A stretch of DNA of 431 nt, from the NCBI RefSeq assembly GCF_003334385.1, contig NZ_QOWN01000183.1; one strand, 5' to 3'. Each line of letters begins with the position of its first letter. Position 1 is the stretch's first letter. Positions 1 through 431 of the stretch are shown in pieces. Below the pieces are notes generated by a model. It did no database searches, was not told the origin of the DNA, and worked only from the letters and a program-made list of their open reading frames with translations. This stretch comes from Escherichia coli (GTDB taxonomy: Bacteria; Pseudomonadota; Gammaproteobacteria; Enterobacterales; Enterobacteriaceae). The position numbers were made by a program, and so were the translations under genes.

Positions 1-77
1 GCAACCAGCATTAGTGAAAATGAAATACCGACAATCACACACAGGACCTTTGCCGGCGTTATGAGTTTGTCTGACAT
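1..77 (-). CDS. 5' end of a protein-coding gene (start ATG at 77-75, continues beyond window position 1); hydrophobic N-terminus suggests a membrane or secreted protein; identity unknown
   Basis: Minus-strand ATG at 77-75 is the first start after an in-frame TAA (89-87). It is preceded by AAGGGG (88-83) with a 5-nt spacer. The frame stays open to position 1 and reads MSDKLITPAKVLCVIVGISFSLMLV..., with a hydrophobic stretch from about residue 10. The supplied track omits it, apparently because it is partial. Confidence 0.6.
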   Translation of the reverse strand, partial: MSDKLITPAKVLCVIVGISFSLMLV

Positions 78-79
78 AG

Positions 80-175
80 CTACCCCTTAATTGCCACAAT
101 TAACTGGGATACTACCCATAAAAAAGGGATGCTCCAGACCAGCAAAAATTTCCAGTTTGGTAATTGACTAATCAT
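80..175 (-). CDS. Candidate small ORF, 31 aa (MISQLPNWKFLLVWSIPFLWVVSQLIVAIKG), predicted single-pass small membrane protein; hypothetical
   Basis: This is the internal ATG (175-173) of the 70-aa track ORF, in the same frame, with TAG stop at 82-80. AGGGAG (190-185) lies 9 nt upstream. The peptide has a roughly 20-residue hydrophobic core (FLLVWSIPFLWVVSQLIVAI) flanked by K residues. Caveat: the minus strand is T-rich here, which favours hydrophobic codons by chance. Confidence 0.35.
   Translation of the reverse strand: MISQLPNWKFLLVWSIPFLWVVSQLIVAIKG
83..88 (-). promoter_or_regulatory. Shine-Dalgarno / ribosome-binding site (AAGGGG) for the gene starting at 77
   Basis: Minus-strand AAGGGG lies 5 nt upstream of the ATG (AAGGGGtagctATG), a near-ideal spacing for a purine-rich Shine-Dalgarno. 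Confidence 0.6.
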
Positions 176-184
176 GAGTCGCAA

Positions 185-190
185 CTCCCT
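185..190 (-). promoter_or_regulatory. Putative Shine-Dalgarno (AGGGAG) for the candidate small ORF
   Basis: Minus-strand reads AGGGAGttgcgactcATG. The GGAG core is present and the 9-nt spacer is at the long end of the functional range. Confidence 0.35.
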
Positions 191-240
191 AATCAGTTTG
201 CTAAAATCAATCAAGGCAGCCTCCCATAGCTTACTGCCAT

Positions 241-280
241 AAAAACAAAACCCCGCTTGCTGCCAACAAACGGGGTTTTT
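241..280. terminator. Rho-independent (intrinsic) terminator, potentially bidirectional
   Basis: Stem 251-259 (CCCCGCTTG) pairs with 267-275 (CAAACGGGG): 9 bp with one C/A mismatch and five G-C pairs, loop 260-266. It is followed on the plus strand by TTTTT (276-280) and preceded by AAAAACAAAA (241-250), which is UUUUGUUUUU on the minus strand. The minus-strand TAA stop at 287-285 lies 9 nt before the hairpin. Confidence 0.75.
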
Positions 281-284
281 ACTT

Positions 285-431
285 TTATTCACTTACATTT
301 TGCCAGTTCGCAGGATTTCGTGTTATCCGTCCGCCTTGGCCAACGTCATTTATTAGCAAAATATTCTGCTTATCTGTCGATTCCCCAGCACGCCAGCGCG
401 CTCTCCTGGTCTCGCCGGGATACCTGACCGT
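285..431 (-). CDS. 3' end of an upstream protein-coding gene (enters from beyond 431, TAA stop at 287-285); product unknown; frame assignment uncertain
   Basis: Minus-strand frame is open from 431 to the TAA at 287-285 (48 codons: ...TVRYPGETRRARWRAGESTDKQNILLINDVGQGGRITRNPANWQNVSE*), and the stop is followed immediately by the terminator. Caveat: this frame holds several codons rare in enterobacteria (AGG x2, AGA, CGA, CGG, CTA, ATA x2). Another minus frame, stopping at 372-370, and a stop-free plus frame are also open here. Confidence 0.4.
   Translation of the reverse strand, partial: TVRYPGETRRARWRAGESTDKQNILLINDVGQGGRITRNPANWQNVSE

Follow-up and report, generated by a model that had tools for sequence, protein, structure and literature searches.

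Translational coupling between neighbouring bacterial genes has been explained by two models, RNA unfolding and termination-reinitiation, both of which are established (PMC10666635, PMC12548453). Termination-reinitiation pairs of E. coli have been tested by Huber et al. in 2019 and 2023 (PMC6728339, PMC10666635), and a stop-to-start distance of +2 nucleotides (nt) lies within the range of efficient coupling, while about 20 nt abolishes it (PMC10666635; reviewed in PMC12548453). Unfolding-dependent coupling is known from genes VII-IX of phage f1, the coat and lysis genes of MS2, and rpmI-rplT of E. coli (PMC12548453). Here we describe a junction between two small open reading frames (ORFs), A and B, on the minus strand of a 431-nt stretch of Escherichia coli DNA (assembly GCF_003334385.1, contig NZ_QOWN01000183.1; hereafter the window, meaning the whole stretch that was analysed), in which the stop codon of A is nested between the Shine-Dalgarno sequence (SD) and the ATG of B.

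This junction is like the termination-reinitiation pairs of the trp operon and of Huber et al. in that both genes are on the same strand, stop and start are a few nt apart, and the SD lies in the last codons of the upstream gene. It differs from them in its gap of +2 nt, the commonest arrangements being overlaps of -4 or -1, and in that B also occurs behind other genes at a gap of 14 nt. With the f1, MS2 and rpmI-rplT cases it shares a downstream ribosome-binding site (RBS) that is predicted to pair with a coding segment of the upstream gene, and covariation supports this A-B helix. However, the predicted helix is short (13 pairs, with a bulged AUG) and energetically like shuffled sequence. 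The reading toward which we lean, if only slightly, is that the junction is the intercistronic joint of two co-transcribed genes for small single-pass inner-membrane proteins, with B made in step with A. If true, it would be another natural case of two-layer coupling, by unfolding and reinitiation together, with unusually clean covariation at the spacer, and A and B would be flagged as a likely heteromeric pair. The mechanism of coupling is already textbook, A and B being uncharacterised members of a mosaic cassette of small membrane-protein genes, and the current understanding of coupling or lysis stays unchanged.

Anatomy and occurrence of the A-B junction

Across the junction the minus strand reads GCA ATT AAG GGG TAG CT ATG TCA GAC. 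An earlier note on this DNA had read the site as AAGGGG-TAG-ct-ATG, and this is exact: the SD occupies positions 88-83, the TAG 82-80, the CT 79-78 and the ATG 77-75, and the range of 75-90 that it gave is the junction feature with two extra bases. The nested stop that it described is borne out as well, since an ORF ending at 82-80 and an ORF starting at 77 are both listed or annotated. The SD of B (83-88), AAGGGG, is formed by the last two sense codons of A (Lys-Gly), and the stop of A together with the 2-nt spacer (78-82) fills the interval between this SD and the ATG. Pairing of AAGGGG with the 3' end of 16S ribosomal RNA is predicted at -8.4 kcal/mol, and the spacing from SD to ATG is 5 nt. 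The stop-to-start distance of +2 nt falls inside the efficient coupling range, which extends from overlap to about +10 nt.

A tight joint of this kind can arise by chance. When random windows were generated as first-order-Markov sequences of the same composition as the window, 90 of 5000 (1.8%) contained such a junction, defined as an ORF of 30 codons or more with its stop no more than 10 nt upstream of an SD-preceded ATG opening at least 25 codons. Taken alone, then, the junction is mildly unlikely, and the real argument is its conservation. It is found in 701 of 5426 complete E. coli genomes (~13%), O104:H4 and 55989 among them. Whether the overlap is preserved in homologous loci had been put forward by the earlier note as a check, and the nested stop with its 2-nt gap is indeed kept in five intact sequence lineages, among which are Escherichia, Cronobacter and two further loci. 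Across these lineages the stop and spacer read TAG-CT, TAA-AG, TAA-GT, TAA-GC or TAA-AC, with the gap always 2 nt, and the SD is always AAGGGG, AAGAGG or AAGGGA. In viral contigs, an A-type gene with the nested stop precedes B in 50 distinct contexts, which read AAGGGG-TAG-CT-ATG or AAG(G/A)GG-TAA-AG-ATG; the TAA-AG form belongs to an A variant with a replaced N-terminus (MKMIKMDWKF...) located downstream of an antirepressor-like gene. The remaining forms come from loci with other lysis genes: locus L215 (AAGGGG-TAA-GT-ATG) has a Peptidase_M15_4 endolysin and other holins, L238 (TAA-GC) a Glyco_hydro_108 endolysin and ANT, and the Cronobacter loci L235-237 (TAA-AC) a Glyco_hydro_108 endolysin. 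Scans for further lineages of the junction gave 13 matches in species-representative genomes, all attributable to chance, and none in metagenomes, while a further scan of viral contigs added one new lineage only, L241.

A candidate RBS-masking helix and the case for coupling

The RBS of B may be masked by pairing with the coding region of A. The 5' arm of the predicted helix is formed by codons 26-30 of A (GUC UGG AGC AUC CC; minus strand, 126-139) and the 3' arm (69-86) by the GGGG of the SD of B, the TAG, the CT spacer and codons 2-3 of B, with the AUG held in a 3-nt bulge. All 13 pairs are predicted from folding the window by itself, and RNAalifold recovers the helix on four lineages. Counted over ten distinct sequences from five lineages (an earlier count used eight sequences), 96.2% of helix cells hold standard pairs. 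Sliding the 3' partners by 1-3 columns lowers this to 31-48%, and none of 500 shuffles reached the covariation score. Pair 19-74 occurs as four pair types and pair 20-73 as three. The two spacer bases and the first two bases of codon 28 of A are always complementary, in the combinations AG/CT, CT/AG, GC/GT, GC/GC and GT/AC, with compensatory changes at each spacer position, and one of the two spacer pairs is retained in L241, a sixth lineage with a frameshifted A. Behind the gene type C', which takes the place of A in other loci, no convincing analogue of the RBS-masking structure was found upstream of B, and folds of that context are no better than shuffles. On the strength of the pair counts and covariation, an RBS-masking structure at B has moderate support.

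The sequence of events that we propose would start with Q-modified RNA polymerase reading through the hairpin upstream of A (described below), the cassette being transcribed only then. Ribosomes on A would melt the RBS-masking helix and would terminate 5 nt from the AUG of B, leaving the SD of B placed to capture the 30S or 70S particle. B would thereby be made in step with A through RNA unfolding and termination-reinitiation combined. Both proteins would then act in the membrane late in infection, where a part in lysis tuning or in exclusion is a guess.

Several observations weigh against this reading, and they concern both the structure and the pairing of the two genes. In single-sequence folds the stability does not exceed that of shuffles (z from -1.2 to +0.2), and only the window type has the full helix in its minimum-free-energy (MFE) structure, two lineages lacking it there. 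The predicted unpaired probability of the RBS of B is no lower than that of the other RBSs of the cassette. The helix was also first derived from the window sequence itself and is drawn from 5-6 lineages only. As for the gene pair, B stands behind a C'-type gene and not behind A in 43 of 94 distinct contexts; the C'-B joint reads TGA-AGGGAGGATTAAGC-ATG, with the stop 5' of a different and stronger SD and a gap of 14 nt. Genes of the A family occur without B in Salmonella, Enterobacter, Klebsiella, Citrobacter and Providencia. B is intact despite a premature stop in A in one E. coli locus (L087) and in all Cronobacter copies, and despite the frameshifted A of L241. B carries a good SD itself and could be initiated independently. 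Searches that took in the supplements of a Ribo-seq paper on enterohaemorrhagic E. coli (EHEC) found no expression data for these ORFs.

Many of the same facts would be accommodated if the tight joint had come about through dense packing of phage genes and recombination, with B initiating independently and nothing linking it to A past a shared transcript. Besides the good SD of B, this explanation can point to the near-equal frequency with which B follows C', and to L234, in which B follows C' with a leftover TTAAGGGGTAGGC leader and no A. B persists intact beside a pseudogene of A, tight joints are the norm at this locus (six of the ~12 same-strand junctions in 12 kilobases (kb) are at most 11 nt), and the fold energies are non-significant. 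Yet compaction alone would not predict that the spacer and codon 28 covary in five lineages within a helix of which 96% is paired, nor that the gap stays fixed at 2 nt while its bases change. We consider it a serious alternative, though the less probable account.

The loci with a premature stop in A do not refute unmasking, because the 5' arm of the helix would still be traversed by ribosomes in L087 and would be reached by those in Cronobacter. As judged from these loci, full-length A protein is dispensable for keeping B. The A family likewise persists alone: genes with a ...RWW C-terminus lack B and stand directly before Rz in Salmonella phage SPN3UB and in L219, or ahead of other spanin-like genes in Enterobacter. 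In Providencia, A of the ...AIKG type, ending AAG GGA TGA, has no B downstream, and this rules out that the KG end of A exists solely to encode the SD of B.

Translational coupling of B to A is thus plausible on the modelled helix and the spacing, and such coupling is probably facultative, given that B has a competent SD and also works behind other upstream genes. The earlier note had gone further, proposing that terminating ribosomes are positioned to reinitiate and that this implies co-expression and a functional link between the two products. Its first part, co-expression with reinitiation, is plausible in light of the shared strand, the +2 nt distance and the covariation. The functional link fared less well, given the occurrence of B behind C', of A without B and of B with a broken A, and the evidence does not establish an obligatory or specific link in function between the two.

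Extent and coding status of ORFs A and B

ORF A (minus strand, 80-214) encodes 44 amino acids (aa; M/L-IDFSKLIRELRLMISQLPNWKFLLVWSIPFLWVVSQLIVAIKG) from a TTG start at 214-212 to the TAG stop at 82-80. The earlier note had started this ORF at the ATG at 175, giving 31 aa, and the longer form from the TTG most likely replaces it. The SD GGGAGG (220-225) lies 5 nt upstream of TTG 214, with a predicted anti-SD duplex of -10.2 kcal/mol, and a purine-rich SD is found at equal distance from the A start in all homologous loci despite their differing flanks. The start codon itself is TTG, ATG or GTG at one position across five loci. Residues 2-13 (IDFSKLIRELR-) are invariant while the underlying codons vary synonymously. 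Sequence comparison thus points to TTG 214 as most likely the start of A. The ATG at 173-175 is Met14 of this protein, invariant across the A family, and is a possible secondary start with the SD AGGGAG and a 9-nt spacer. The protein has a charged N-terminal segment followed by one transmembrane helix, as predicted from hydropathy.

RefSeq and its annotation pipeline PGAP give a 70-aa form of A from GTG 292. This start was rejected, because an SD is absent there (-1.5 kcal/mol) and the ORF would span the terminator, and the homologues that start at the TTG/ATG/GTG position also rule it out. Phage records label the same 70-aa version (window 80-292, minus strand) 'TPR_REGION domain-containing protein'. 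A neighbouring gene shows a similar discrepancy: ORF C (L001 5827-5982) is started by RefSeq/PGAP at a CTG that overlaps B by 37 nt, whereas the comparative data suggest as its start the GTG overlapping the TGA of B, or the next GTG.

Codons 1-25 of ORF B are contained in the window (1-77, minus strand; RefSeq annotation and ORF list), and the gene ends 55 nt beyond its left edge. The whole protein is 43 aa (MSDKLITPAKVLCVIVGISFSLMLVALFLSLAWVMLSSSGLLG) with one transmembrane helix. The downstream 'hydrophobic protein' of the earlier note is thus itself just 43 aa. Homologues of B fall into 103 protein clusters, nearly all of 43-44 aa, with identity down to ~62%, and those of A, of 42-50 aa, come from Escherichia, Salmonella, Providencia, Citrobacter, Enterobacter and Klebsiella. 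A matches PHROG 6632 and B matches PHROG 4906, both with function listed as unknown.

Selection was assessed from the ratio of nonsynonymous to synonymous polymorphism (pN/pS). Between the window and L215, the ratio for A is 0.21 in frame, with 1.2 and 3.4 in the other frames, and that for B is 0.44 in frame, with 0.65 and 2.4 in the others. Among 21 E. coli alleles of B the values are 0.50 in frame and 0.67 and 1.08 in the other frames. A 90-aa alternative frame overlapping B, in the style of PHROG 3246, was rejected on its off-frame pN/pS of at least 1.

These data bear on whether A and B are genes at all. One or both could be non-coding remnants of a decaying prophage, the SD, stop and ATG forming a pattern without translational meaning. 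Such a view could draw on the shortness of the ORFs, on the lack of a Pfam or NCBIfam family and the function-less PHROG matches, on the frameshifted or truncated copies, and on the pN/pS of B within E. coli, which is only 0.50. It is at odds with the frame-specific synonymous excess in both ORFs, with the rotation of TTG, ATG and GTG at one start position with an SD each time, and with the constancy of B at 43-44 aa over the 103 clusters. It also fits poorly with their presence in isolated phages and in six genera, beside four unrelated endolysin types. We regard this explanation as very unlikely. On the substitution patterns and homologues, A and B are protein-coding genes, moderately constrained and under purifying selection in their own frames.

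The prophage cassette and its upstream hairpin

The window lies in the Q-dependent late region, among the lysis genes, of an E. coli prophage that is lambdoid and Stx-phage-like. Many E. coli chromosomes carry prophage DNA 100% identical to it. The minus-strand gene order is a class II holin, a YdfR fragment, the lysozyme R, four small ORFs (A-D) and Rz/Rz1; in annotated identical loci, terminase and capsid genes follow beyond Rz, which is called 'lysis protein' and has Rz1 embedded. The 3' end of the lysozyme/endolysin gene R, known from the RefSeq annotation of identical loci and the ORF list, lies in the window at 370-431, with its TAA stop at 372-370, and its product is a 177-aa R21/RrrQ-like protein with a hydrophobic N-terminal segment of the signal-arrest-release (SAR) type. 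Stx phages typically combine a SAR endolysin of this kind with a pinholin and Rz/Rz1, as described in PMC8136144.

The homologues of R and Rz in the Qin prophage of K-12, rrrQ and rzpQ, share a 4-nt overlap and have nothing inserted between them. Here about 640 base pairs (bp) separate R from Rz, so the insert is accessory. Its order is hairpin, ORF A, ORF B, ORF C, ORF D and then Rz. ORF C has ~38-40 aa and a GTG that overlaps the TGA of B, and ORF D has 28 aa and a TGA 1 nt ahead of the ATG of Rz. A hydropathy scan found one strongly hydrophobic 19-residue segment in each of the four proteins, with a mean Kyte-Doolittle value of 2.2 for A and 2.9 for B. Searches of NCBIfam, PADLOC and Pfam returned no family for A-D, and Rfam at a permissive threshold returned nothing relevant across the locus. 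In PHROGs, NCBIfam, Pfam and PADLOC, A and B match no described holin, antiholin or releasin family, and the literature searched for the peptide sequences, for genes of the R-Rz interval and for accessory lysis proteins of Stx phages makes no mention of these ORFs.

Ahead of A is an intrinsic-terminator-like stem-loop (279-247) with a T tract (246-237), the whole feature spanning 237-279 on the minus strand and identified by terminator scan, fold energy and conservation; an A tract on its other side makes it formally bidirectional. Its fold energy is -25.8 kcal/mol (z = -4.0). The hairpin is conserved ahead of the first small gene, at a distance of 30-45 nt, in 9 loci that represent 6 genera, and 5 of its 12 stem pairs show compensatory changes. 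Most phage records match only positions 241-431 of the window, their matches breaking at 241, and this puts a mosaic joint just downstream of the hairpin stem. A terminator in front of a gene cassette, not behind it, is unusual. A second terminator follows B in L215 only.

On the coding strand the promoter scan found no sigma-70-like site anywhere in the R-Rz interval, and the minus strand from 214 to 1 holds no promoter-like or terminator-like site. In the absence of a coding-strand sigma-70-like site, the cassette would be most simply expressed by Q-modified polymerase reading through the hairpin, and we infer this read-through from established lambdoid biology.

A third explanation of the junction takes A or B to be the hydrophobic toxin of a type I toxin-antitoxin-like system, with an antisense RNA running from a plus-strand site at 71-100 to the hairpin at ~280-290. 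Small hydrophobic peptides agree in size and hydropathy with such toxins, a plus-strand sigma-70-like site (CTGACA-18-CACAAT, extended TG) sits at 71-100 exactly over the junction and antisense to A, and the hairpin has T tracts on both strands. But no other promoter-like site occurs in 1.8 kb, where 2.0 would be expected by chance, and the homologous loci L215, L005 and L216 lack it; in L212 the single antisense-strand site lies ~330 nt beyond the A gene. Neither Rfam nor PADLOC gave a match, and the genes are in line within the late operon with tight joints to Rz. We rejected the antisense-RNA reading, the plus-strand site being unconserved and within chance expectation, and give a type I system hardly any credence.

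Accessory cassettes in lambdoid late operons are known as morons, for example bor and lom of lambda. The A-D cassette is like them in separating genes which are direct neighbours in relatives (K-12 Qin) and in being mosaic and mobile across phage backgrounds. It differs in that no promoter of its own was detected and in that its terminator lies upstream, not downstream. Its expression therefore probably needs late antitermination and would not be autonomous in the lysogen. The small membrane-protein genes between R and Rz also recall the S-R-Rz/Rz1 cassette of the lambdoid or phage 21 type, with its pinholin, SAR endolysin and spanins. However, A-family genes occur beside non-SAR endolysins as well, and even within tail clusters, so that the data give no indication of a role specific to SAR-endolysin lysis. 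RWW-type A genes with hairpins of their own upstream are found within tail/baseplate clusters of Klebsiella grimontii (L216 2501-2638) and Citrobacter (L218 2501-2638), and for this reason the A family behaves as a cassette that moves among late operons, and is not a lysis gene in the strict sense.

Accessory membrane proteins of phage lysis are known, such as the antiholin LydB of P1 and gp25 of Mu, a 'releasin' (PMC9239132). By a bolder reading, which we find improbable, A-D would be an unrecognised, rapidly recombining set of small single-pass membrane proteins, and A and B would make up a membrane complex of two peptides with a role in tuning lysis or excluding superinfecting phage. It would have a cassette of terminator hairpin, leader and small genes entering the late operons of enterobacterial temperate phages, and would place that cassette most often between endolysin and spanin genes. 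That the A-B stoichiometry is set by the covarying helix with termination-reinitiation, and that the complex is antiholin-like or releasin-like, is in our estimate similarly unlikely.

The descriptive gain is a picture of the interval between endolysin and spanin genes, in Stx-like and other enterobacterial prophages, as a mosaic array of genes for small membrane proteins with a conserved hairpin in front. The annotation of these genes is inconsistent and would be improved by corrected starts, and they are candidates for roles in lysis timing or exclusion. Across E. coli prophages (L001 5729-5949; L086-L091) the interval is hyper-mosaic, occurring as A-B-C-D, A-B, C'-B, D' alone or X1-C''-X2-D. 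The hairpin, a T-rich leader and an SD stand ahead of the first small gene, be it A, A', C' or D', in L005, L212, L215-L219 and L234, and hairpin-led small genes occur beside four unrelated endolysin types. The C and D families have a common ...RA-AFAI(K/R)-VA... motif. Proteins of the D and A' types end in ...IRWW, the codons CGT TGG TGG supplying the SD of Rz, and Rz starts 1 nt after their stop (TGAtATG or TAAcATG).

The stretch at 280-369 (minus strand), the 3' untranslated part of R, is widely conserved, with matches in over 300 phage records; Salmonella phage SPN3UB has it at 76%. The stretch holds the core GGATAACACGAAATCCTGCGAACTGGCAAAA and a 24-codon ORF with a TTG start, of which the ...RITRNPANWQ... 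part is kept among E. coli variants, and it has no Rfam match. It may contain a tiny ORF, serve as a binding site, or yield from the 3' untranslated region (UTR) a small RNA that ends at the hairpin.

The endolysin-Rz gap of SPN3UB, 400 bp in length, is wholly unannotated despite its 45-aa A' gene. The same phage has an unannotated hydrophobic ORF of 36-38 aa (MSKRDVSALCFLMAAAVAISGNDGWGWLIFAGIIIL; L005 1953-2069) that lies ahead of the hairpin and overlaps the end of the endolysin gene in the ATGA manner. In Stx phages, stx occupies the position just upstream of the holin genes. In the Cronobacter prophages L235-L237 (1-859), Enterotoxin_a/Scabin-like and LT-IIB Pfam matches lie immediately upstream of the holin genes, and the genes concerned are a pair of the heat-labile-enterotoxin type II-like A and B kind.

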